A stretch of DNA of 64,000 nucleotides from a virus (Duplodnaviria > Heunggongvirae > Uroviricota > Caudoviricetes), in the IMG/VR virus record IMGVR_UViG_3300020451_002055. One strand, 5' to 3'. The notes under the pieces were generated by a model. The model was not told the DNA's origin. It saw nothing but the letters and a program-made list of their open reading frames with translations, and searched no databases. This document shows positions 2,699 through 63,659 of this stretch, in pieces. The first letter of the stretch is position 1. The number at the start of each line of letters is the position of its first letter. The position numbers were made by a program, and so were the translations under genes.

Positions 2699-3456
2699 GA
2701 TCGTCTCTCTGCTAAAAAGTCCGTTATTCTTTCATCGATGAGATCATAGTATAGCTCATCGATTCTCTTGTTGTCAGGATACTTTGGCAGGGTCGAGTTA
2801 TCTACCGCATCCATCATTTCAGCATCTAAGTTTTCAACGATAGCCTCTACTCTTTCAAAAGTCAGATTGCCTTCTCTGATATCAGTCAAAAGATCAGCTT
2901 CCGGTCTAGGGAAAGTTATGAAGCCTTCTTTGGCTAGCTCCTTACCTTGACTGAGAAGCCGAACCGCATGATATGCGTTCTTGATCGAATAGCCATGCTT
3001 GGCGTGCGACTCTTTTCGTTTCGCGCCAACAACGCGAGGGCTAAAGTATACATCTCCGGTCTCTTTGTTCTTCGTCTTTAGCTGAGCCTTAAGCCATTCA
3101 GAGCGGGCGAAGCCCGCAAACGGCATTAGCTGATTCTTGGCAACAAACAAAGCTCTGCTATCAAGCAGTCGTCTGCCGTATTCGGTTATCTGTAGAATGC
3201 GGTTGTCGGGAGCGAAGAGGATCTCGAACGTGTTCGGAGTTCCTTTTGCTAGCTGATGAATGAACTTAGGAAGTCCCCATACAACAACATCATCAACCTT
3301 GTTCTCATGCTGATCGAATCGCTTTCGACCTAGTAGATATTCGGCAGGCTCAACAACAAAGCCTCGACGGTCAAAGTCTGATTGCGGCGTGGCGCAGCCA
3401 TACATATGACTGCCCGTCTGTATTAGTAAATCTGGTTTGCTCCAAAAATCTTTCAA
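2695..3456 (-). CDS. Pol-beta superfamily nucleotidyltransferase (RlaP/Nuc-transf-like)
   Basis: GSHMYGCATPQSDFDRRG motif, KNAYHAVRLL helix; TTG start at 3456 chosen because GGAGGAG precedes it and it avoids overlap with the tRNA. Confidence 0.85.
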   Translation of the reverse strand: MKDFWSKPDLLIQTGSHMYGCATPQSDFDRRGFVVEPAEYLLGRKRFDQHENKVDDVVVWGLPKFIHQLAKGTPNTFEILFAPDNRILQITEYGRRLLDSRALFVAKNQLMPFAGFARSEWLKAQLKTKNKETGDVYFSPRVVGAKRKESHAKHGYSIKNAYHAVRLLSQGKELAKEGFITFPRPEADLLTDIREGNLTFERVEAIVENLDAEMMDAVDNSTLPKYPDNKRIDELYYDLIDERITDFLAERRS

Positions 3457-3474
3457 CTCTTCTCTCCTCCAAAA

Positions 3475-3551
3475 TGCCCCGCGGCGGACTTGAACCGCCA
3501 ACCTCCGATCCCAAAAAATCGATGCTCTGATCCATATTGAGCTAGCGGGGC
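3475..3551 (-). tRNA. tRNA with 8-nt anticodon loop (UUUUUGGG), identity uncertain
   Basis: Acceptor GCCCCGC/GCGGGGC+A, D stem GCTC/GAGC, anticodon stem TCGAT/ATCGG, T arm GGCGG-TTCAAGT-CCGCC; no CCA. Confidence 0.8.
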
Positions 3552-3637
3552 AGGCAGCCGAATTGATACATGGCTCCGCGTTCGCGACCTACCAAAAGAA
3601 GCGTCGGAACCTCGATGGCTGCCCAAGTTCTTATCGA

Positions 3638-6947: not shown

Positions 6948-8159
6948 TCAGACATTGGGGCTCTTGAATCGCATGTAATCCTCGTAGGTGGTGACAAATC
7001 CATGAGTCTCCACCTGAAGAGGGATGGAATCTTCATTGACTTCAATCTTTTCCCACATGGGCGTATACGGCTTGCGATAATGCTCAACTTCATGGATAAT
7101 CGACGAGTAAGCGTCGGTACTTTCTCTAAGCGAATCATCTGGGAACTGCGACGGAGGACCAGGATTCCAGTAGTGGAAATCGTATACGCCTGACAATATT
7201 GCATGACCCGCAAACTGAGCATCGAGCCAAGGCGTATCCCTATTCCACTTGTTGTGCAATATCTGGTAGCCGCATGGCGAAATCCAAGGGGCACAGCCTC
7301 CCTTGTTGACGTTACTCCTGATATGGTTCAACTTGTCGAGAAAGCATATCCATCGCCAATGAATGCCAGTAGCGTTTGTAAGTCTGGCGAATCGATGACT
7401 CGGACCGCCGTTATTCAATAGGTACATGACCGGAGCAGATTCGTTTATAGATACACCAAAGTCAACGTCGGAAGTCGTGTCGTTCCAGTTGTCAATCGGA
7501 AAGTCCTTCCAACTGTCGGCGTAGTTGGTGCATTTTGAATCTTCGCCAAAAGCGTACTGCTGAGGTTCATAGAGCGTCTGCCTCATAGCCTCTGCTCTTA
7601 GCTGATTCGACCAACCTCCCCAGACATGATGGGCGTAGTTCCTGTTTGGGCTGCTTAGCTCATAATCAGCCGGAGTAAACCCTTGTAGCTCGGGCGGCAA
7701 CTGAGCTACGCATTCAGGTATCTTGTAAAGCTCCTGAAGCATTTTCTGCTTGGGCTCTTCCTCCCAGTTCCAAAGAGTCAAGCCGCCCTCGAAATCGCAA
7801 ACGACTCGATAGGGCTCCAACCCTGCCTGTTTAATAAGATCATAGAACTCGAAATACTTCGTTCTCAAAGGTTCTATGTTGTAGCCGTCGAGAAGCATGG
7901 AAACCATCTGCTCCCTATCGAGGACGCCTGTCATTGGATGCCAGAGATGCAAAACTCGGTCTCTGTAGACTTTGCTTTCTAAGAACCTGATGGCCCAGTG
8001 CGCTGATGCTTCCGCCGTGTTCGACTGAATCCGGACCCAATGCATAGGAGTAGCGAATGAGGGAGCCCCTTGAGGGTCGCCTCCCCATCCATAGAACTTG
8101 ACTTCTTCCATTCCGCTTTCGTAGTCGTCGTGTAGATTCGTTTGTCCGCCAACCGGCAT
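6948..8159 (-). CDS. Hypothetical Trp/Tyr-rich protein
   Basis: 403-aa ORF with GGAGG RBS. Confidence 0.7.
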   Translation of the reverse strand: MPVGGQTNLHDDYESGMEEVKFYGWGGDPQGAPSFATPMHWVRIQSNTAEASAHWAIRFLESKVYRDRVLHLWHPMTGVLDREQMVSMLLDGYNIEPLRTKYFEFYDLIKQAGLEPYRVVCDFEGGLTLWNWEEEPKQKMLQELYKIPECVAQLPPELQGFTPADYELSSPNRNYAHHVWGGWSNQLRAEAMRQTLYEPQQYAFGEDSKCTNYADSWKDFPIDNWNDTTSDVDFGVSINESAPVMYLLNNGGPSHRFARLTNATGIHWRWICFLDKLNHIRSNVNKGGCAPWISPCGYQILHNKWNRDTPWLDAQFAGHAILSGVYDFHYWNPGPPSQFPDDSLRESTDAYSSIIHEVEHYRKPYTPMWEKIEVNEDSIPLQVETHGFVTTYEDYMRFKSPNV

Positions 8160-8314: not shown

Positions 8315-8680
8315 ATGAATAAAGGTCAAGACCCCATTGAGTTCATAAGTAGATGCAGCGCCGGTAAAGAAGGCGACATAGAAATCTACAAACCATTGGG
8401 TGAACAAATGCTAGGATGCTTCTTTGATCTTTTCTGGAAACTATTGTTTAGACCGAGCGCTTGCGGAACCCTGACTGTTTCTGCAGGTGCCCAAGAAATC
8501 TTCGTAGATACCTGCTTTACTCCCTCCGAAGTATGGCTCTCTATCGGCGAGGCCGAAGGGAAACCAGGCTGCGGTCCTCAGGATGACTCCTTCGATATAC
8601 GGTATGTCCCGAAAGGATTCATTTTGATAGCTAAGACCAACAGCCCTCGAAGGAAAGTAAAATGGAAAGCAATCGGGTAG
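8315..8680 (+). CDS. Hypothetical protein
   Basis: 121-aa ORF overlapping start of next plus-strand gene. Confidence 0.55.
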   Translation: MNKGQDPIEFISRCSAGKEGDIEIYKPLGEQMLGCFFDLFWKLLFRPSACGTLTVSAGAQEIFVDTCFTPSEVWLSIGEAEGKPGCGPQDDSFDIRYVPKGFILIAKTNSPRRKVKWKAIG

Positions 8681-9642
8681 TTAATGTTGTCGGCTGGTAC
8701 GGCAAGAACAACGTCGGAGATGAGTCTTACAAATTAGCCTACAAAACTCTCTGGCCTAACGAAAACTTAGTATTCTCGGACGAGCCGGTTGAGGCAGATT
8801 ACCACATTCTCGGCGGAGGCGACATTGTTTCGCCTTCTTTTACAAAGAACAAGTTTGACAGCGTTATGAGCGTCTCTTTCCCCGCTCATGCCAACCCGGA
8901 GCAGCTAAAAGACTGCGAAAGAATATGGGTTAGAGACGAACTTTCTCTCAGTAATGCCGAGAACCTTGGACTCAAGGCTGAGTTAGTGCCCGACTTTGCG
9001 TTCGCCCTAAGACCAAATCCTGCCGATGGACTGCGAAAGATACGATCGCTCTTCAAGTCAGAAGAACTCGATCTCTATTCTCAGAGAATAGCGGTTGTCA
9101 TTAATTCCCATGTTTCGGCGGCTAGCGACAGCTTGGCGTCTAAGTACATTCAGTTCGAACGTTTTGCATGGGAGATAGCTTCTCTCGCAGACAACTTCCC
9201 GGCTAGTTTTATCTTCATTCCTTTTGGAACTTCGCCGCCATGGGATGACCGGTCGGCTGCGGCATCGGCTGCAAGTAAATGCAAGTTCTGGAAAAAGAAC
9301 TGCTGCGTTTACAACCGCTTGTCCGTACAAGAAACCCTTGACGTTCTATCCGCATGCGATGCGGCCATCAGTATGCGTCTTCATAGCTCAATCTTTTGCA
9401 CGGTCGGCCATACGCCGTTCCTTGATATAACCCACAATCATAAGAACCCCAACTTCCTGAAAACCATAGGAAAACAAGACTGGTCTATACCGTATGGATC
9501 TTTCTGTAAAGAGTCAGCTAAGACAAAACTGATGCATAGACTTGAGAGACAAAAAGAAGACTCGAAGTCGCTGCGGGAGATATCTGATGAACAACGAGAA
9601 AGACTGCGAAACAGAGCAAACTCTGTATCTTTCCTACGATAA
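8662..9642 (+). CDS. Polysaccharide pyruvyl transferase family protein
   Basis: GWYGKNNVGDE, ILGGGD, VRDELS, LVPDFAF, ISMRLHSSI motifs. Confidence 0.85.
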   Translation: MESNRVVNVVGWYGKNNVGDESYKLAYKTLWPNENLVFSDEPVEADYHILGGGDIVSPSFTKNKFDSVMSVSFPAHANPEQLKDCERIWVRDELSLSNAENLGLKAELVPDFAFALRPNPADGLRKIRSLFKSEELDLYSQRIAVVINSHVSAASDSLASKYIQFERFAWEIASLADNFPASFIFIPFGTSPPWDDRSAAASAASKCKFWKKNCCVYNRLSVQETLDVLSACDAAISMRLHSSIFCTVGHTPFLDITHNHKNPNFLKTIGKQDWSIPYGSFCKESAKTKLMHRLERQKEDSKSLREISDEQRERLRNRANSVSFLR

Positions 9643-18623: not shown

Positions 18624-21185
18624 TCAAAGCCGAAAGCCGTCTGCAGGATTTGAGAAACCTTCGGAACTCATAATCCCGAGCCTAACAAGCTCTTGAACCA
18701 TATAGCCATAGAAATCAGGATCATACAATCCATCCCACATCAAAAGCGAGTTGGGATCTCTGACAAACCTGGCAGATGCGCTGTGTTGCAGTTCTGCTGA
18801 CTGAACGTCCTGCAACGAAATGAACCGGTACTTACCAGACTTAGAAGGAGATTCCTCTTCTTCGCCGCCCCAGTCGATCAACGTGTGAAACTCAACAGAA
18901 ACGCATGCTGCCTCAAACCTGCGGGACAGTTCGCCAGCCGTCATGTCCCCCAGTTCATCATTGATGATTTTCCTAAACAATTCGGCATCCACCATGACCG
19001 GAATGTAGCTGCTCTCGATAACTCTAGTCAGGTGATCGGTCTTTCGCATATCCCAGGTTGTATCGGCCTCTCTAATAGCTTCGATCAAGGACAAGTTTGC
19101 TTTGCTCTCTGCGAACCTATTAAATGCGGCTTGGCAGTTATCCACTGTGATACCGTTTTGAAGTTCGCTCAGAAGATGGTCTCTCGATTCGATGAAGTCC
19201 GGATTGTCCGTAAACGGAAACTGCTTGTCAGGAGTAAGGAGAAAGCAGTAGACGCCCCGAGAAAGCCTGTTGTATTCGCCATGTCGGTTGACCCGGCCAG
19301 CGACCTGCAGGCAAGCTGTTACAGACCTTGCTTCCGAGAACGCATGTCTAAAGGACAAATCGATACCAGTCTCAAGGACCGAGGTAGCAAAGACGATGAT
19401 GTCGTCCTTGCTTTTCAATCGTTCTTTGATACTGTTAATGATTCTTGATTTGTCATACTTGCTAAGCGCGCTGCTAATGTGGTAGATATCTTCTTTAGGG
19501 GCAATCTCCATTTCTCTTGCGTAATGGGCGAGCAGTGCAGCATTCCTTGTCGTTTGCAAGATACAGAGTCGAGGGCCTCTGAATTGCGAGATTCTGCGCA
19601 GCAGCGAGGCTCCCGTGAAAATATGGGTTCTATCTTCTCTAACAAGGCCCCTAACAGGAGCCCTTCTGCGCTCCATATCCATCATCTGACTTGAAAGCTC
19701 TTCGCTAACAACCTCATGGATGTCAAGAGGTTCGATATTGAGATGCTCAGATTGCCACGGACGAATAGGAGTGCCTGAGCAAAAGATAAAGACGCATCCC
19801 CATTTTTCATTCAGAGTTTTAAGCGTCGATGCAATGATCGGCCAGAGGTGCGGAGGGAAACTGTTGTCGAACTCATCCAGAACAACAACGGAACCTGGAA
19901 GCTGATGCAACTTACGGAGCCTGTGCGTCTCTCCGCTCAGAATCGTCTCGAAGAACTGCACGGCTGTAACGCATGTGACGGGCGACCGCCAAAGCTTGCC
20001 GAAGGCAGCGGCAATCCAGTTATCGTACCCGGCAACGTGATGATGTTCTGCAACTGATCGCTCGCCAGGATCATAATCCCAACGAACTCTGTCGCTACTC
20101 TGCTGATCAGTTCCAAGACGAAAAGCTGCCCTCAGAGCTTCGGTTGTCTGACTTGTTGTATTAATGAAAGGAGAAACATTGTACACATGGCGCAGCCCTT
20201 GAGCCTCTGCGATGCGAAGGGCAAGAGCAGTCGAGGAGAAAGTCTTGCCGGAACCGACTGTTGCAGAGAGCATGTAGAATGATTGATTTGGGTCGCACTC
20301 CAAGCATTCCTGAAAAAGCCTGTCTCTGATGATATTTCTACGAGTCCTGCGAGCCTTTCCTCTCATCTCTCTATCTCGAACTCGGCGCACGTGCCCGATA
20401 AGCCTTTCAAGCCTGATCGTCGGTTGAAGTTCAACCTGATCAAAATCATCAAGAGGATACTTAGAAAATCTGCTCGATGCATCCAGATGATCAGAATCAA
20501 CCAGCATCGAGAAGAGGATGCGCATATCGATTGCATTAATGTCATCAATGCTAAGATTGGCCCTCGTCATCTTTCTGGGAAGCTCTTTGCAATGAACCTG
20601 AAACATATCGTTGATATATCTCTGAACATAGGCAGGCGTCTGCCCGTGATTGCCAAATCCAGGCTCTTGCAACAGAAAATCAAACGATCGCACGGCGTTG
20701 CCGCTAACTGTCTTCATCCGCCTAGAGCCCCTCTTGCGGGGTTTATGCGGCTCGATTGGATTCCGAGTCTTCCAGGCCGCTCCATCATTTAGCAGACCAA
20801 CATGGTGCCCCTCAACAAGAGCGCCAGAGATGACATGCGTCATCTTGTTTGTTCGAGCAAATGCTTCGAGGAGCAAGGCAACGCCCGCATGAACATGGTT
20901 GCCTCTCTCGCTCATGGGGCCGAGACCCTTCATGGCAAGCTGAAATGGAACCATGAGCTTTCCCATGTCGTGAAGCCAGGCGGCATCCATCAGCGACCCA
21001 TGCAGAGCATCGACAGCGCAAGGCCCTCTGTAAAAACTCAGAGCGTTAGTAGCCGCCCGCGCGGCCTTATCCATAACGCCAGCGACATGATTGCGATAAA
21101 GCTGCGGCGGAACAGGGTTCCCTCGCCGATCCTCGCCTTCGCTGCTTGCAACCAGCGGTCCTTCTGGTAGTTGATATGTTGCCAT
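18624..21185 (-). CDS. cas3: CRISPR-associated HD nuclease-helicase Cas3
   Basis: YRNHV, WLHDMGK, MLVDSDHLD (HD); ATVGSGKT, VVLDEF, FATSVLETGIDL, QVAGRVNRHG (SF2 helicase). Confidence 0.95.
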   Translation of the reverse strand: MATYQLPEGPLVASSEGEDRRGNPVPPQLYRNHVAGVMDKAARAATNALSFYRGPCAVDALHGSLMDAAWLHDMGKLMVPFQLAMKGLGPMSERGNHVHAGVALLLEAFARTNKMTHVISGALVEGHHVGLLNDGAAWKTRNPIEPHKPRKRGSRRMKTVSGNAVRSFDFLLQEPGFGNHGQTPAYVQRYINDMFQVHCKELPRKMTRANLSIDDINAIDMRILFSMLVDSDHLDASSRFSKYPLDDFDQVELQPTIRLERLIGHVRRVRDREMRGKARRTRRNIIRDRLFQECLECDPNQSFYMLSATVGSGKTFSSTALALRIAEAQGLRHVYNVSPFINTTSQTTEALRAAFRLGTDQQSSDRVRWDYDPGERSVAEHHHVAGYDNWIAAAFGKLWRSPVTCVTAVQFFETILSGETHRLRKLHQLPGSVVVLDEFDNSFPPHLWPIIASTLKTLNEKWGCVFIFCSGTPIRPWQSEHLNIEPLDIHEVVSEELSSQMMDMERRRAPVRGLVREDRTHIFTGASLLRRISQFRGPRLCILQTTRNAALLAHYAREMEIAPKEDIYHISSALSKYDKSRIINSIKERLKSKDDIIVFATSVLETGIDLSFRHAFSEARSVTACLQVAGRVNRHGEYNRLSRGVYCFLLTPDKQFPFTDNPDFIESRDHLLSELQNGITVDNCQAAFNRFAESKANLSLIEAIREADTTWDMRKTDHLTRVIESSYIPVMVDAELFRKIINDELGDMTAGELSRRFEAACVSVEFHTLIDWGGEEEESPSKSGKYRFISLQDVQSAELQHSASARFVRDPNSLLMWDGLYDPDFYGYMVQELVRLGIMSSEGFSNPADGFRL

Positions 21186-25196: not shown

Positions 25197-26248
25197 CTTG
25201 AAGGCCACCTCTCTTTGAGAGTAGATTGCAACTGGAAGACAGAAGACTCCTTCAGCTTGAGTGTTGAAGGCCACCTCTCTTTGAGAGTAGATTGCAACAC
25301 CAATGGCAACGGATTCCATGTCACGCTGGTTGAAGGCCACCTCTCTTTGAGAGTAGATTGCAACTCAAGGTTGACGGAGTAGACAGACGCCATGGTTGAA
25401 GGCCACCTCTCTTTGAGAGTAGATTGCAACTGATAGAGGATCTGCCGCTACAGCCCGCCAGTTGTCCGGGGTCACCTCTCTTTGAGAGTAGATTGCAACA
25501 CGACTCCGACGAATGGCGAGAGGTCGAGAGTTAAAGGCCACCTCTCTTTGAGAGTAGATTGCAACGGCTCAGTTCACGTCAGCGCGATCATTCTATTTGC
25601 ATCTCGCATGTAAATGCGAGTAGATTGCAACAGGATGCTGACACCAGGGTCGAACACCTCGGTTGTATCTCGCATGTAAATGCGAGCAGATTGCAACGAA
25701 CTTGCCGGGCTGAGCCTTGGCGACCTGATTGAAGGCCACCTCTCTTTGAGAGTAGATTGCAACGGATAGAGCCAGTCGATAACCGCATCAACTGCTGAAG
25801 GCCACCTTTCTTTGAGAGTAGATTGCAACAGCGAGCAGTTCGCCTTCTGTACCGACATCGTTGAAGGTCACCTCTCTTTGAGAGCAGATTGTAACTGAGC
25901 ATCGGAGTCAACTGTGTATTAGATCATTACATCTCGCATATGCGAGTAGATTGCAATCATGTCATGCTAACCGGACCAGCAGGCATTCATAAAAGTCGTC
26001 TCCCTTGGAGTAGATTGTAACCCTTTGACCATAAAACGGCTTGCTTCCTAAAGTCGTCCCAATCGGGTAGATTACAATTTCCGGACGCTGCCTCCGCAGC
26101 GCTTCCTGTAAGGCATCTCCGTCAGGAGTAGATTACAATGTGAGACCGTCTTTCGTTATGGGAGCCTCGATCGCCTACGGCGTAAATTACAACTACGGAG
26201 GATCAACGAAAAAGAATGCTCGTCTCCCGCTTGGGAGTAGATTGCAAT
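25197..26248 (+). CRISPR. CRISPR array, 17 repeat units, mostly 30-nt spacers
   Basis: Consensus GTTGAAGGCCACCTCTCTTTGAGAGTAGATTGCAAC (36 nt), 66-nt period; 11-nt handle TAGATTGCAAC resembles type I-C TGGATTGAAAC; leader at low-coordinate end, divergent units distal. Confidence 0.97.
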
Positions 26249-55811: not shown

Positions 55812-55979
55812 CGGTTTGTCTCCTTGGGTTGGGGATGGTCTTTGACATTGTACTCAGCGAACAGATTCGGTGCCACTGTCGCCTCGTTGATTTCCCTATT
55901 GTTTCACCCCCAACTGCCACCTGCAAGCGCTCAGGCATAGATTTCCGACAGGACCGCCGAAAATTGCGCTCATGGCACG

Positions 55980-56018
55980 AAAAAACCCCTTCGGACCTTT
56001 CGGCTACCGAAGGGGTTT
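55980..56018 (-). terminator. Intrinsic terminator closing the ncRNA locus
   Basis: AAACCCCTTCGG...CCGAAGGGGTTTTTT on minus strand. Confidence 0.7.
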
Positions 56019-56029
56019 GATCATTCTAC

Positions 56030-56490
56030 CTCGCCATCCGCTCGACCCTTGGGGATTGCTCCCCTCTTTGAGCGGCCTTGATCCCGACAGCCGTGCCCGC
56101 CGAAGCGAACATGACCTTCCGTTGTCGGAACCTGTTTCGTCGCCAAGGGATGACGACTAAGGCTCGGTACCAGTCCGGCTGTTTACTTCCGGCTGGTCAA
56201 CAAGGTTGTTCGCCGTGCCAGGGGTTTCCCCGAGGGGTAGGCGAGTCCTTGATGAAACCCTACTGAGCTTTTTACGACTCAGTAGAATATAGGCTCGTAT
56301 CCGCAACAGCCCAAGGCGGGGTGACTGTATTGGCTCTTGCCTATCTGCTTCAGGAATAGGGCAGTCCGCTTGCCATCCATCCGCAGTCGAGGAGTACCTT
56401 TCGGATTCCTCTAAACCACTCAGTCAGCCGAAACTGGCTGAGTAGTTACCGTCCATCTCTCTGCATGTCGCCATGCGGAGCGTGGGTCCG
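56030..56490 (-). ncRNA. Candidate large structured RNA
   Basis: No credible ORF; stems CTACTGAG/CTCAGTAG, ACTCAGCCAG/CTGACTGAGT, GAGGA..CCGAAAGG..TCCTC, GGGGAAACCCC, GGGGA-GCAA-TCCCC. Confidence 0.55.
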
Positions 56491-56492
56491 GT

Positions 56493-56714
56493 CACATGCT
56501 TGGGACTTTCTCAAGCCCTTCTGCTCTAGGCGAGTTTCCCTTTCGGTTCCTCGCTCGCTCAAGAATCAGGTCAAGACCTAAGAGTTGAGCGTCTTGAGTT
56601 ACATGCCCGCCTTCCGGTTGGCATTTGGCTCAGCCTAGCGCTTTTGACCCTTTCTGCAAGCAGGGTTGGGTCGCAGCATATGTCTAGAGGTATGGGCCTC
56701 GCGGCTTGGCCTCT
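56493..56714 (-). ncRNA. Structured RNA, tandem copy A
   Basis: Homologous to 56796-57018 with covarying stems and GNRA loops. Confidence 0.7.
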
Positions 56715-56795
56715 ATAAACCATTCGGACTGGCGAACCAGACCGAACAGTTGTCGCTCTCTGTCAAGCTCGTCGCCGAGCAAGATAAGTAGCGGC

Positions 56796-57018
56796 CACAT
56801 GCTTTCCGACTCTCTCAAGCCGGTATGCCCCAAGCAGGTTTACCTTTCGGTTCCCTACTCGCTCAACCGTCATCAGCAAGCTGATAGCGGACTGAGGCGT
56901 GCCCGTTCCTTCAAGATGTTTCCATCTAGTCAGGTCAGAGCCTTGGAGTGGAGCCCCTTTGCAAGCAGGTCGGGACTCCGCATATGTCGAGAGGTGTGGG
57001 CCTCGCAGCTTGGCCTCT
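56796..57018 (-). ncRNA. Structured RNA, tandem copy B
   Basis: Homologous to 56493-56714. Confidence 0.7.
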
Positions 57019-57309
57019 CTAAAGCCGTCTCAAGGTTTGACCCTTGCGACGACTGAACCGGGTTCTTCACAACTCTCGGGTAGGTTTGCCCGATTGGTTC
57101 CAGAAGCAGGCGGTTCCCTCTACAGCTTACTGACAGTTTGCGTCTGCCGTTCGTCTGCGTCGGTGAGTGCCTTCCCTTAGTAGCCTCTGGTCCTTTCTGC
57201 GAGCCGGTTTGCTCGCCGAGTTGTGGAGGTAAGCTTAGCCGACCATGAAGGGTTCGTCAAGCTGCCGGTCAAAAGAAATCGTCCTTCCGACGCGAATTCC
57301 TTGAGGCAT

Positions 57310-59118: not shown

Positions 59119-59739
59119 TTAGGCCGAAGCCGCAGCCGTGCCCTTCTTGGCGGTGGACTTCTTCGCCGCCGTCTTCTTCTTGGCAGCGGGCTTGGACTTG
59201 GGGACGATCTCGGAAGCGTCCTCGATGCCGAGGTCGGTCATGACGGAGTTGTAGATACCGGCCTTCTGGTCCTTCTTGATCTCCGCCGGACGCTCGTTGA
59301 GGAAGCGGCGGGCCATGTCGATCGCCTTCTGAGCCGCAGCGGGATCGCCGCCCTCGCCCATCTGCTCGGCGAACGCCTTGTTCCCCTTCTGCGCCGCCCG
59401 CTGCGAGAGAACCTCGCCGCCCTGCAGGATCATGAGGGCGATGGACTCGTTCGAGAGGCGGAGAACGCCATCGGGGTGGATGAAGCCGTCCTGGTTGTAG
59501 TGCTGACGACCGTACTTCTCGTCGGCGCTGAACTTGCGGGCGACGGGGCCGAAGAACTCGGTGACGTGGTTGACGGCAGCCTTGATCGCATCAGCGCTGT
59601 TGTCGAGAACGACGCGGGCCTTCGTGACGTTCTTGTTCGTCTCGCGGCGGCTCTCGTGGTACTTGGGCTGAGCGACGGTCCGGTTCGTCGAACGCTTGAT
59701 GCGGGGTTTGCGGGTCTTCTTTGCGGTCTTCTTCGCCAT
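59119..59739 (-). CDS. Protein with histone H1-like K/A-rich tails
   Basis: MAKKTAKKTRKPRIKR...KPAAKKKTAAKKSTAKKG; AAGGAG RBS. Confidence 0.65.
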   Translation of the reverse strand: MAKKTAKKTRKPRIKRSTNRTVAQPKYHESRRETNKNVTKARVVLDNSADAIKAAVNHVTEFFGPVARKFSADEKYGRQHYNQDGFIHPDGVLRLSNESIALMILQGGEVLSQRAAQKGNKAFAEQMGEGGDPAAAQKAIDMARRFLNERPAEIKKDQKAGIYNSVMTDLGIEDASEIVPKSKPAAKKKTAAKKSTAKKGTAAASA

Positions 59740-59867
59740 GGTTGTCTCCTTTGGCATCGAAATGGGTCGTGCGAAGACTCCTTTGCCTTCGCCTCGTTGA
59801 CAACGAACAGTTGGCCTCGCCAGTATTCGGTGATCCTACCAGCGGGTCAAGTCTGATCGTCAGAAAA

Positions 59868-61066: not shown

Positions 61067-61168
61067 ATCCGACAGTTGTCGGTCCCACCTTTCGGTGAGA
61101 GGGGCACGATGGCTGGCATCGTACGGTCCACCACCCATCTTTTCAAGGGAGATGGGAAACCCGGAACG

Positions 61169-61241
61169 TAGGCCCTGTCGGATTCGAACCGACGACCAAG
61201 GAATTATGAGTTCCCTGCTCTGACCGCTGAGCTAAGGGCCT
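61169..61241 (-). tRNA. tRNA with CAT anticodon, Ile2-like body
   Basis: GGGAA-CTCATAA-TTCCT; full cloverleaf; no CCA. Confidence 0.9.
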
Positions 61242-61324
61242 GAAGAGCGGGTTGACGGAGAGTATTTTCCTAGGCTTTATTCCTCTCGCACGCAAGTCGC
61301 TTGCTGATTTTTATCAACCCGCAA

Positions 61325-61397
61325 TGACCCCTGCTGGATTTGAACCAGCGACCTCTGCCTTGTCATGGCAGCGCTCTAGCCGCTGAGCTAAGGGGCC
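61325..61397 (-). tRNA. tRNA-Val(GAC)
   Basis: CTGCC-ATGACAA-GGCAG. Confidence 0.93.
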
Positions 61398-61421
61398 AGG
61401 TATTCAGTTGTGTATTCGGAA

Positions 61422-61493
61422 TCCGACCGGAAGGATTCGAACCTTCGACACGGCGATTATCGGTCGCCTGCTCTGCCACTGAGCTACGATCGG
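61422..61493 (-). tRNA. tRNA-Ile(GAT)
   Basis: GGCGA-CCGATAA-TCGCC. Confidence 0.93.
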
Positions 61494-61552
61494 GTTGATA
61501 ATCGGAATAATGTCGGGTTCGCTGTTCATGTTTCAATCTACTCCATCGGAAG

Positions 61553-61626
61553 TGGACGATCCCAGACTCGAACTGGGGGCCTTCTGGGTGTAAACCAGAC
61601 GCTCTGGCCAACTGAGCTAATCGTCC
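61553..61626 (-). tRNA. tRNA-Val(TAC)
   Basis: TCTGG-TTTACAC-CCAGA. Confidence 0.93.
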
Positions 61627-61746
61627 AAAGCCGCCTGCGGATACTGAGGGCAGTATATCTCGACGCATGAGACACCCGCAAGCGGTAGCATCTACATTCG
61701 TCCAAACTCTTTTCAGTCCTTCAGGATTCCACGAAAAGATGCCGAT

Positions 61747-61980
61747 TTATGCCGGAACCGTTTCATCCTGCATGGACTTCAGCTTGCCGTAGTAGCGGCG
61801 TATGTGCTTGGCGAAAGCATACAGATACTCTTCCTCCGGCGACAGTTCAAGAGCTTCGAGCTTGTCGCAGAGTGCCCGAGCCATCAAAGGATCGAGTACC
61901 AACTGTATCTTGTTGCCTCGTAGACGGTTGGGTTCATCGATATGGAAGGCTGGCTTCCGGGTTCGCTGCGTGTCAGACAT
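61747..61980 (-). CDS. Hypothetical protein
   Basis: 77 aa, GGAG RBS. Confidence 0.55.
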   Translation of the reverse strand: MSDTQRTRKPAFHIDEPNRLRGNKIQLVLDPLMARALCDKLEALELSPEEEYLYAFAKHIRRYYGKLKSMQDETVPA

Positions 61981-62035
61981 TGTTCACTCCGTAGTAGTTG
62001 CTGTTCGGCCATACTACTAAGGAGTTACTTCACTT

Positions 62036-62422
62036 TCAGACAACAACATCTCCGGCATCCACCAAAGCCTCCGCCTGAATCCAGTCGAGCGTCTCTTCAG
62101 GAACGTTGCTGGTCAGCGTCATCGCATCTCCCAACTCTCGCCGGAAAACAGTCAAACAGCAGCGGACTGCAAGGTCATAGGCATGATCATTCGTCTCGAC
62201 GATGCAGTTGTTGTCGCCAGCCAACGTAATGCTGAACGTGTCATGCGACTCGTCCTTGACTCCGTTGAAGGTGATCTCTGAAGAAGAGAAGACAGGCTCG
62301 CCTGTTCCGTCCCAACCAGCCAACTTGCAGCCGATGGCAGTAACGACCTCCTCGCAGCGACGAGAAAGAAGAGCGAAGCCATTCGGTGTTAGGGATGGGA
62401 TTTGAAAGCTGTAGCGAGCCAT
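62036..62422 (-). CDS. Hypothetical protein (paralog of 45059-45577)
   Basis: FNGVK..SHDTF...TN..AYDLAVR. Confidence 0.6.
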   Translation of the reverse strand: MARYSFQIPSLTPNGFALLSRRCEEVVTAIGCKLAGWDGTGEPVFSSSEITFNGVKDESHDTFSITLAGDNNCIVETNDHAYDLAVRCCLTVFRRELGDAMTLTSNVPEETLDWIQAEALVDAGDVVV

Positions 62423-62896
62423 TCATTCCTCCTTGACGCGCCACTCAGCGGCGACGGCTTCGTACCGATCGGTGTAACCGAACTGAGCGAAGTTGCCATC
62501 CGCCTGCTTATGAGCCCGAAGAGCAGCTTCGAAGGCCTGACCCTTCGGAGTCAAACCGACGACAAGGCTAACGGCTGAAGGCCGAACAATCAAGCCCTCC
62601 GCCTCAAGATCATGCAGGCATGACCAATCGTCATGGTCAGTCAGGAGAAGCGACTTGTTGGACTTGTCCTTGAAGTAGCCCTTCAGACGAGAGCCGTACT
62701 CGGGCTTCCAGAATTGGTTGCCCTGACGACGCATACGTCGAGGATCGAGTTCTTGCCCTTCAACGACGCATGTGCCGATGTAGCCGAGGAGAGACCAATG
62801 GTCCTTGCCCCATTGATCATGGGGGATGTAGCCTTCAGCTTTCATTGCCTCGGTATCGGTCAGATCCATCAGAGCTTGCACGGTTTGGGTTTGCAT
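62423..62896 (-). CDS. Hypothetical protein
   Basis: WGKDHWSLL...HDDWSCL. Confidence 0.6.
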   Translation of the reverse strand: MQTQTVQALMDLTDTEAMKAEGYIPHDQWGKDHWSLLGYIGTCVVEGQELDPRRMRRQGNQFWKPEYGSRLKGYFKDKSNKSLLLTDHDDWSCLHDLEAEGLIVRPSAVSLVVGLTPKGQAFEAALRAHKQADGNFAQFGYTDRYEAVAAEWRVKEE

Positions 62897-62931
62897 GGGC
62901 TACCCCGCATAACCGTCATATTCGGTGCAAA

Positions 62932-63014
62932 TGAGCCCGGCGGGACTCGAACCCGCAACGATCTCTCGATCCGCGGATTTTAAGTCCGCTGCTTTGCCAT
63001 TTTGCTACGGGCCC
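62932..63014 (-). tRNA. tRNA-Leu(TAA)
   Basis: GCGGA-CTTAAAA-TCCGC, long variable arm. Confidence 0.93.
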
Positions 63015-63029
63015 AGAAAGATGGGTGAA

Positions 63030-63104
63030 TGCTCCCGAACGGATTCGAACCGCCAACTTTCTGGTTCTGAACCAGACGCCTCTGCCAGGTTGGGCCACGG
63101 GAGC
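63030..63104 (-). tRNA. tRNA with Leu anticodon CAG but short variable loop
   Basis: TCTGG-TTCAGAA-CCAGA then 5-nt AAGTT loop. Confidence 0.85.
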
Positions 63105-63113
63105 GTGCCTGAA

Positions 63114-63196
63114 TGTCCGTAGCAGGATTCGAACCTGCACCCTCTTGCGAGGACCACCACCTCAAGGTGGCGCGTCTGCCGTTCCGCCATACGGAC
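63114..63196 (-). tRNA. tRNA-Leu(GAG)
   Basis: CCACC-TTGAGGT-GGTGG, long variable arm. Confidence 0.93.
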
Positions 63197-63364
63197 CTGA
63201 TGTTTAGGAGAACTCCTTGAAGAACTCCTCTGCCTCGATGTAGCTCTCGCAGACTCGCTCATGCTCTCCATGCTTGCATGTAACGCTTCCGCTTGAGTTC
63301 GAAAGGAACCAGTTTCTTGCTTCGTCGATGGATGTTACTGCCTGCATTCCGTCTCCTTTTCAAA

Positions 63365-63446
63365 TGGCCCCGCCCGGGGTCGAACCGGGACTCCTCTCGG
63401 AACCGGATTTTGAATCCGGCGCGTCTGCCTATTCCGCCACGAGGCC
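63365..63446 (-). tRNA. tRNA-Leu(CAA)
   Basis: CCGGA-TTCAAAA-TCCGG, long variable arm. Confidence 0.93.
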
Positions 63447-63458
63447 TTCAGTTGTAAA

Positions 63459-63567
63459 TGCGGCTGGCAGGATTCGAACCTACAACCCGCCATTTAGACG
63501 GGACCATGCAATCAAGGTGGCTTGCGCAGAACCTTGTCGGTGCGTCGGCCTGTTGCGCCACAGCCGC
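63459..63567 (-). ncRNA. tRNA-Leu-like element (109 nt) with expanded anticodon arm
   Basis: Acceptor GCGGCTG/CAGCCGC+A, Leu-type D arm, variable arm CCCGTC/GGCGGG, T arm GTAGG-TTCGAAT-CCTGC. Confidence 0.7.
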
Positions 63568-63577
63568 AGTCAGTAAG

Positions 63578-63659
63578 TAGCCCCGACAGGTCTCGAACCT
63601 GCACTCCCGAAGGAACAAGATCCTAAATCTTGCGCGTCTGCCAATTCCGCCACGGAGCC
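63578..63659 (-). tRNA. tRNA-Leu(TAG)
   Basis: CAAGA-TTTAGGA-TCTTG, long variable arm. Confidence 0.93.

Follow-up and report, generated by a model that had tools for sequence, protein, structure and literature searches.

Tandem copies of a previously uncatalogued structured RNA family in a non-coding array beside the tRNA cluster of a huge phage

The region between positions 56493 and 57018 of the window, i.e., the whole 64,000-nt stretch of phage DNA that was analysed, raises the question of what its two similar copies encode and what they may do for the phage. The original prediction had read them as a tandem duplicate of a structured RNA. Each of the sequence blocks that it named was found, and they lie on the minus strand, on which copy B (57019-56796) and copy A (56715-56493) are paralogues of one structured RNA at a spacing of 304 nt. 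The blocks that are shared by both copies read AGAGGCCAAGCYGCGAGGCCCAYACCUC, GACAUAUGC, CCUGCUUGCA, UUGAGCGAG, GGAACCGAAAGG and GCAUGUG on that strand, and one 21-nt block, GAGGCCAAGCNGCGAGGCCCA, occurs twice in the window compared with zero expected occurrences in 100 shuffles. The stems that had been described as compensatory also proved to be real. The P7 stem is GGGCUU-GAGA-AAGUCC in one copy and CCGGCUU-GAGA-GAGUCGG in the other, the P6 stem is GCGAG/CUCGC versus GUAGG/CCUGC, and the P2 stem is GACCC/GGGUC versus GGAGUCCC/GGGGCUCC, while the P1 closing helix is CAUAUGC/GCAUGUG in both copies. The copy limits proposed at first, 56493-56714 and 56796-57018, fall within a few bases of the matches of a covariance model of the family, R1 (56482-56719 and 56785-57023), which scored 213.9 bits for copy A and 190.6 bits for copy B with all 242 model positions covered. 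Moreover, both copies fold more stably than their own shuffles (z of -3.8 and -3.2).

The loci of the family were found in part via 14 homologues of the 212-aa protein encoded at 59119-59757, the contigs of which were scanned with nhmmer and then with R1. This covariance-model search, which had been proposed together with the original prediction, yielded 15 members in nine related huge-phage loci with one to three members per locus: three in L178, two each in the window, L186 and L176, one strong and one weak in L022, and one each in L001, L180, L183 and L188. All of the members sit in one syntenic ORF-free gap downstream of the homologues of the 59119-59757 protein. A 498,568-bp IMG/VR contig that carries direct terminal repeats (L001/G001) encodes a homologue of the neighbouring 259-aa protein with 52% identity; a DNA search of this complete genome, G001, revealed exactly one copy of the family RNA, which is 77% identical to copy B. 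Among the 41 matches of a metagenome pattern scan, only those in L019, L021 and L022 were real, and a weak and partial match in L036 (13.7 bits, R1) was left out of the member count. A blastn search of the INPHARED phage records gave no match to the RNA. The first two pattern scans of IMG/VR were empty and the third returned only the contig of L001, the two-block and P6-motif patterns gave only chance matches in coding sequence there, and none of the 120 chance matches from a scan of genome contigs passed nhmmer. On the data reachable here, the family is confined to the one phage lineage, which would be a lineage of uncultured marine phages of ~0.5 Mb. In Rfam, no family matched the window copies at the gathering threshold or at E<=10, and none matched the divergent members (L001, L178 and L183) at E<=1, in agreement with the initial remark that the RNA was not a recognised one. 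There is good support for the two copies being paralogous units of a structured RNA family that had not been catalogued before.

A further observation concerns L022, in which the family model also matches, weakly and over its full length, positions 2902-3154 (+), downstream of the strong copy (34.5 bits, E 1.6e-9). This stretch starts with UUUAGA and a P0-like hairpin, has no counterpart in the window and may be a very diverged extra module.

The module of ~235 nt consists of a GNRA-capped hairpin, P0, followed by a P1-closed domain with two stacked four-way junctions. The outer junction joins P1 (a closing helix of 7 bp), P2, P3 and P7, and the long-range helix P3 leads to an inner junction with the hairpins P4, P5 and P6; the helix topology that emerges from the folds is P1[P2, P3[P4, P5, P6], P7], with no crossing helix. 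In each module, P0 would be stacked against the P1 helix. The parts of the two copies in the window are as follows.

56989-57019, minus strand: P0 hairpin of copy B, a GAGAGG/CCUCUC stem with an inner GCU-GCGA-GGC hairpin that has a GNRA loop
56796-56986, minus strand: core of copy B (190.6 bits; MFE fold), in which P1 (56986-56980 with 56802-56796) encloses P2-P7
56685-56715, minus strand: P0 hairpin of copy A, a UAGAGG/CCUCUA stem with an inner GCC-GCGA-GGC hairpin
56493-56682, minus strand: core of copy A (213.9 bits; MFE fold)
56682-56676 with 56499-56493, minus strand: P1 of copy A
56672-56646, minus strand: P2 of copy A
56641-56635 with 56529-56523, minus strand: P3 of copy A
56632-56595, minus strand: P4 of copy A
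56591-56556, minus strand: P5 of copy A
56554-56530, minus strand: P6 of copy A
56518-56503, minus strand: P7 of copy A

GNRA loops were found on P0, P4, P6 and P7, and near-invariant A-rich internal loops in P2 (AAC/AAA) and P6 (GAA/GAAA). The P2 cap is CUUG, UUCG or GAAA among the members and the GNRA-capped P4 hairpin is variable, whereas P6 is nearly invariant (G-GAA-SC-GMAA-GS-GAAA-C). P7 has the form CUU-GAGA-KAG; next come the 3' strand of P1 and an RCCG tail. The features that define the new family, i.e., P0 together with the P1-closed double four-way junction, the GAA/GAAA loop of P6 and the CAUAUGC/GCAUGUG helix of P1, are present in both window copies.

In the R1-fitted alignment, which leans towards the model, 86.5% of the cells pair as compared with 29-43% when the partners are slid by 1-3 columns, and changes on both sides were found in 33 of the 51 pairs; none of 500 shuffles reached any of the observed pairing measures. 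RNAalifold, which was run on a structure-naive MAFFT alignment as a second test, gave compensatory pairs in 24 of 41 and recovered P0, P1, P2, the apical part of P5, P6 and P7. P3 is absent from this result because MAFFT shifts its 5' strand. By individual sequence, P3 is fully compensatory, as exemplified by GCGCUAG/CUAGAGC, CUCCAA/UUGGGG, GCUUCAA/UUGAGGC, CAUCAG/CUGAUG and CUUUAG/CUAAGG, and double changes were seen in each of its five pairs when the model-fitted alignment was used; the same alignment has changes on both sides in eight of the nine pairs of P0 helices 1 and 2. The covariation that had been noticed between two copies is thus extended by 13-15 homologues from other phages, which show far more of it than two copies could. 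Independent MFE folds recovered the same architecture in 8-9 of 10 diverse members, which, together with this strong covariation, supports the early view of a multi-junction RNA under structural selection. Additionally, G-U cells outnumber A-C cells (64 versus 26), which identifies the minus strand of the window as the RNA strand; the GNRA loops, the promoter and the terminator are all consistent with this.

The two copies are units in a non-coding array that runs from promoter to terminator over ~1.25 kb (57260 to 55977) beside a tRNA cluster; across the loci, the length of the array is 1.05-1.7 kb. Its parts outside the modules are given below.

57232-57260, minus strand: sigma-70-like promoter of the array, with TTGACG at 57260-57255, a 17-nt spacer and TAAGCT at 57237-57232
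57024-57225, minus strand: 5' leader of ~200 nt, with a P2-like hairpin, CCGGCUCGCAGAAAGGACC, at 57211-57189; 98.5% identical in L186
56716-56795, minus strand: punctuation element after copy B, with a GCGA-capped hairpin, GCGACAACUGUUCGG, a second hairpin and CCGAAUGGUUUA; ~97% identical in L186
56019-56492, minus strand: 3' part of the array, with a second punctuation element (56482 to ~56405), a P0-like hairpin, a different structured RNA and a 3' terminal domain
55977-56018, minus strand: intrinsic terminator, an inverted repeat (AAACCCCUUCGG ... CCGAAGGGGUUU) followed by UUUUUU

The promoter was read from the sequence; its -10 hexamer is below the threshold of the consensus scanner, which for this reason did not list it. 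It is conserved at the head of the gap in all nine loci (the window, L001, L022, L176, L178, L180, L183, L186 and L188) as TTGACN-N17-TA(A/T)(A/G)CT or TTGACN-N17-TAxxxT, which suggests that the RNA array is transcribed by the host sigma-70 machinery. Equivalent terminators close the gap in seven of the nine loci. By eye, sequence blocks of the leader recur in L180, L183 and L188, and the 3' terminal domain is common to the same three loci. A punctuation element of ~85 nt follows each core and consists of a GNRA-capped hairpin, RCGACAACUGUUCGG, a second hairpin and CCGAAUGGUUUAG, with the next P0 directly 3' of it; nhmmer revealed related elements 3' of the cores in L176, L178, L180 and L186. 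The repeat unit is therefore ~300 nt long and comprises P0, the core and the punctuation element, and the tandem copies (one to three) arise via duplication of this unit. Accordingly, the tandem duplicate of a 222-nt RNA that was proposed initially is to be read more widely. In the 3' part, the P0-like hairpin reads GAGGA-AUCC-GAAA-GG-UAC-UCCUC, and the region is 93% (92.8%) identical in L186 and 71% identical in L022, in which the hairpins have changed compensatorily. The structured RNA in this part was tested against the family model and is not a member of the family; it is conserved in both L022 and L186 with compensatory changes and carries the conserved single-stranded blocks AUGGACGGUAACUA, GGAUGGCAAGCGGA, GCCCUAUUCC and CAGCAGAUAGG.

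The array of L001 has a different beginning, as judged by eye: its module starts 1-3 nt 3' of two tRNA-shaped RNAs of ~170 nt (3056-3232 and 3237-3405, +), which lie directly upstream in the same transcript. Both combine an acceptor helix of 7 bp with a D arm, GCUC...GAGC, into which a hairpin is inserted, and a T arm, GGAGG-UUCAAAU-CCUCC; a long helix replaces the anticodon arm. Neither Rfam nor ARAGORN called them. Such an adjacency would give the module a processed 5' end.

Over a colinear 4 kb, L186 is 91-100% identical to the window per 100 nt with three exceptions, namely the two RNA cores (64-69%) and one intergenic stretch (79%). By segment, identity is 98.5% in the leader with P0 of copy B, 53.7% in the interior of core B, 96.9% in the spacer with P0 of copy A, 76.6% in the interior of core A and 92.8% in the 3' domain, and the breaks in identity coincide exactly with the P1 strands. 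The core of copy A, in turn, is 99.5-100% identical over ~195 nt to that of L022 and L019, which are two independent assemblies of one distant relative with syntenic flanking proteins that are only 28-41% identical to those of the window. Outside the core, identity to this relative is 71% in the 3' domain and ~30% in the remainder, and the P0 stem of L022 (GGAAAG/CUUUCC) is a compensatory replacement of the one in copy A with the loop retained. The nearest relative of copy B is the copy of L001 (74%). The core tree is in sharp disagreement with the phage backbone, which means that whole P1-closed cores move horizontally between phages. That the window contig is locally a chimera of assembly is unlikely, as no long exact words are shared by the flanks and the independent assemblies L019 and L022 agree. 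Most simply, the exchange would come about by homologous recombination at the conserved P0 loop and P1 strands combined with selection against chimeric cores, because chimeras would break co-adapted pairs. The frequent replacement of the cores may reflect diversifying selection; the mosaicism could instead stem from phage recombination in general, with chimeric cores alone being selected against.

Based on these observations, the reading that we favour, and to which we give about an even chance, is that the modules are autonomous folded RNAs that are supplied in multiple copies by a dedicated non-coding array and that would engage in a conflict-type interaction. They would be transcribed from the minus strand within one sigma-70-driven, terminator-ended array of ~1.25 kb, would be released from it or act as autonomous domains, and would work in trans as folded RNA. 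Their most likely role would be that of a protein binding platform or decoy, or of a building block of an RNA assembly, in host-phage or phage-phage conflict. A role in conflict would account for the multiple copies as well as for the high turnover of alleles; the turnover of the core alleles fits such a role and is not proof of one. At first, a possible protein sponge (anti-defence) or ribozyme had been suggested. ToxI repeats act as decoys in host defence conflict, and ToxI-type units are pseudoknots of 34-45 nt that are cut by a cognate toxin encoded adjacent to them. Phage pseudo-ToxI or type III antitoxin RNA repeats were reportedly described by Blower et al. in 2012. Like these repeats, the modules are tandem phage RNA units of variable copy number that can be gained by recombination, and a decoy role is of the kind that is favoured here. 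They differ in that the unit is ~300 nt long and holds two four-way junctions; moreover, whereas ToxI-like repeats are short and lie directly upstream of the gene of an endoribonuclease toxin, none of the neighbours here is toxin-like or belongs to a Pfam or PHROG family.

In a bolder version, which we put forward tentatively as a possibility, the module is a horizontally mobile RNA cassette with many alleles that are exchanged whole and would serve as an arms-race specificity element, e.g., as a decoy against an RNA-targeting defence of the host or as a weapon between competing phages, or it represents a new class of mobile ribozyme. If either were true, phages would be using structured RNA in a new manner. 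What is new here is a structured RNA family with an unusual, cassette-like evolution: one fold, many alleles, tandem duplication and swaps of whole units within a constant surrounding genome, an evolutionary signal that has not been reported for the known classes. The allele-swap pattern points to a conflict-type function and offers natural allele-swap experiments as well as a population-genomic test. Moreover, the module family is compact (235 nt) and strongly covarying, which makes it suited to probing, cryo-EM and pull-downs.

Against the autonomous modules stands the reading that the whole ~1.25 kb transcript is one large ornate RNA of the GOLLD or ROOL kind, RNA-only and possibly multimeric, with the 235-nt modules as repeated architectural domains, which we consider rather unlikely. 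As the unit sits within a longer non-coding array, the module may be part of a larger RNA, as one of its domains, or may arise by processing; either the modules would be processed from a polycistronic precursor, as tRNAs are, or they would be domains of one large RNA, and since the leader, the punctuation elements and the 3' domain are conserved together with them, they may be inseparable from it. GOLLD and ROOL, which occur in phages and prophages, are large ornate RNAs (Weinberg et al. 2017, PMC5737381), and cryo-EM showed that these phage RNAs of unknown function at tRNA islands form nanocages (10.1101/2024.12.08.627333); their structures are known and their function is not, which makes the large phage RNAs of this type at tRNA islands a long-standing puzzle. 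The genomic niche is identical, as the array is located in a phage next to tRNA genes, and it shares with them a phage-encoded, highly structured and GNRA-rich RNA without known protein partners or function, the full array (1.05-1.7 kb) being of the same order of size. A variable region and the ability to carry tRNAs are further features of GOLLD, and the many GNRA loops and A-rich internal loops of the modules could make tetraloop-receptor or A-minor contacts. However, the GOLLD and ROOL covariance models had no match to the array RNAs, whether the window copies were searched at gathering scores or at E<=10, or the members of L001, L178 and L183 at E<=1. L001 shares only the module, its leader and tail being different, and no self-complementary loop suggestive of kissing dimers was noticed by eye. 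The conserved unit here is a 235-nt module in one to three copies that is swapped between phages, and the variation in module number and the swapping of cores independently of the flanks are a better fit to autonomous units. By niche, GOLLD and ROOL are the closest known kind, whereas membership fails on the defining model match.

The exactness of the P1 boundaries could also be taken to mean that the P1-closed core is a mobile, intron-like or self-processing ribozyme that is inserted into and excised from a conserved host RNA at that point, which is unlikely. Both divergence and identity begin and end exactly at the P1 strands, distantly related phages carry an identical core and a near-identical phage carries a different one, and the same RNA island of L180 also contains a group I intron. 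The small group I introns of phage RNA islands are likewise compact, GNRA-rich and ribozyme-sized, move horizontally between phages and have sharp boundaries. However, the predicted topology of the module lacks the group I pseudoknot order of P3-P8/P7, and the Rfam model Intron_gpI matched L180 at 7660-8113 and not the family RNAs. The flanks of the modules are ORF-free structured RNA instead of the exons of a recognisable gene, core and punctuation element are duplicated as one, as a duplication of the unit predicts, and an empty site, in which P0 would be joined straight to the punctuation element, was not seen among the loci. Moreover, the conserved P1 and P0 are natural recombination breakpoints and chimeras break co-adapted pairs, which makes a special mobility mechanism unneeded.

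It is quite unlikely that the module mimics a tRNA and is handled by tRNA enzymes, with the outer four-way junction, the 7-bp terminal helix and the 3' RCCG tail imitating the acceptor end of a cloverleaf. The length of P1, the near-invariant R-C-C-G/U that follows it, the arms of the outer junction in cloverleaf order and the location among tRNAs (in L001 directly 3' of the two tRNA-shaped RNAs) all suit this idea, but neither ARAGORN nor the cloverleaf model of Rfam (RF00005) made a call over 56480-57030, and the loop of P7 is a GAGA tetraloop and not a T-loop. The idea is further weakened by the tRNA genes of the phage itself, in which CCA is not encoded, and the RC of the tail can pair instead with the invariant GA that precedes P1.

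A cis-regulatory role, in which the modules would be a tandem riboswitch or a protein-binding leader that controls read-through into the gene at 55811-55290, is very unlikely. Tandem aptamers are known in riboswitches, and the modules lie upstream of this syntenic 173-aa gene in seven of eight lineages. However, in place of an expression platform directly after an aptamer, copy A is followed by ~470 nt of other structured RNA and by a strong terminator before the gene, which has its own promoter-like site, is reached, and no alternative terminator/antiterminator pairing was found 3' of the modules. G001 carries the RNA without any detectable homologue of the 173-aa protein, for which reason this protein was also rejected as an obligate partner, and a ligand aptamer is not expected to swap alleles. 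Finally, that the repeat is protein-coding or acts at the DNA level, e.g., as protein-binding sites or a recombination site, is hardly credible, for although some members are stop-free over the whole unit in one frame and copy B is overlapped by an ORF of 116 aa on the plus strand, every frame is closed in at least one member (the longest stop-free stretch is 34 aa in L183), which led us to reject a conserved ORF, the changes are pairwise compensatory with indel lengths that are not multiples of three, and the G-U excess marks one strand as RNA.

The surroundings of the array are poor in recognisable genes. From ~24 kb on, the window is GC-richer and almost all of its ORFs are without a Pfam or PHROG match; the ORFs that neighbour the array have none, and no candidate partner protein was found among them. 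The tRNA cluster of the window contains nine to ten tRNAs at 61168-63659, and such clusters are also present in L001, L176, L178 and L180 to L182. Over-long matches to the tRNA model (108-129 nt) are recurrent in the tRNA islands of this lineage (63459-63567 on the minus strand of the window, 8636-8764 and 9188-9295 in L176, 59-181 in L022 and 3441-3554 in L180) and may be tRNAs with inserts or tRNA-like RNAs. The group I intron in the tRNA/RNA island of L180 (7660-8113, +; Rfam, 62 bits) overlaps an ORF with an HNH domain (7416-7970).

Elsewhere in the window, a CRISPR-like array with a 66-nt period was observed at 25198-25895, and a helicase of 853 aa, the C-terminal domain of which is Cas3-like, lies a few kb away (18624-21185). 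None of the spacers of the array matches any of the RNA loci, and the targeting of cores by CRISPR between phages was not supported. Between 24000 and 28000, GC rises from ~0.50 to ~0.58 and the AT skew becomes strongly negative (to -0.28) as far as the end of the window, with long ORFs being sparse at 25-28 kb. At 3474-3552 (minus strand), ARAGORN called a tRNA of undetermined identity with a four-base anticodon (tttg), which lies within the lower-GC left part of the window that holds the TyrRS and glycosyltransferase genes.
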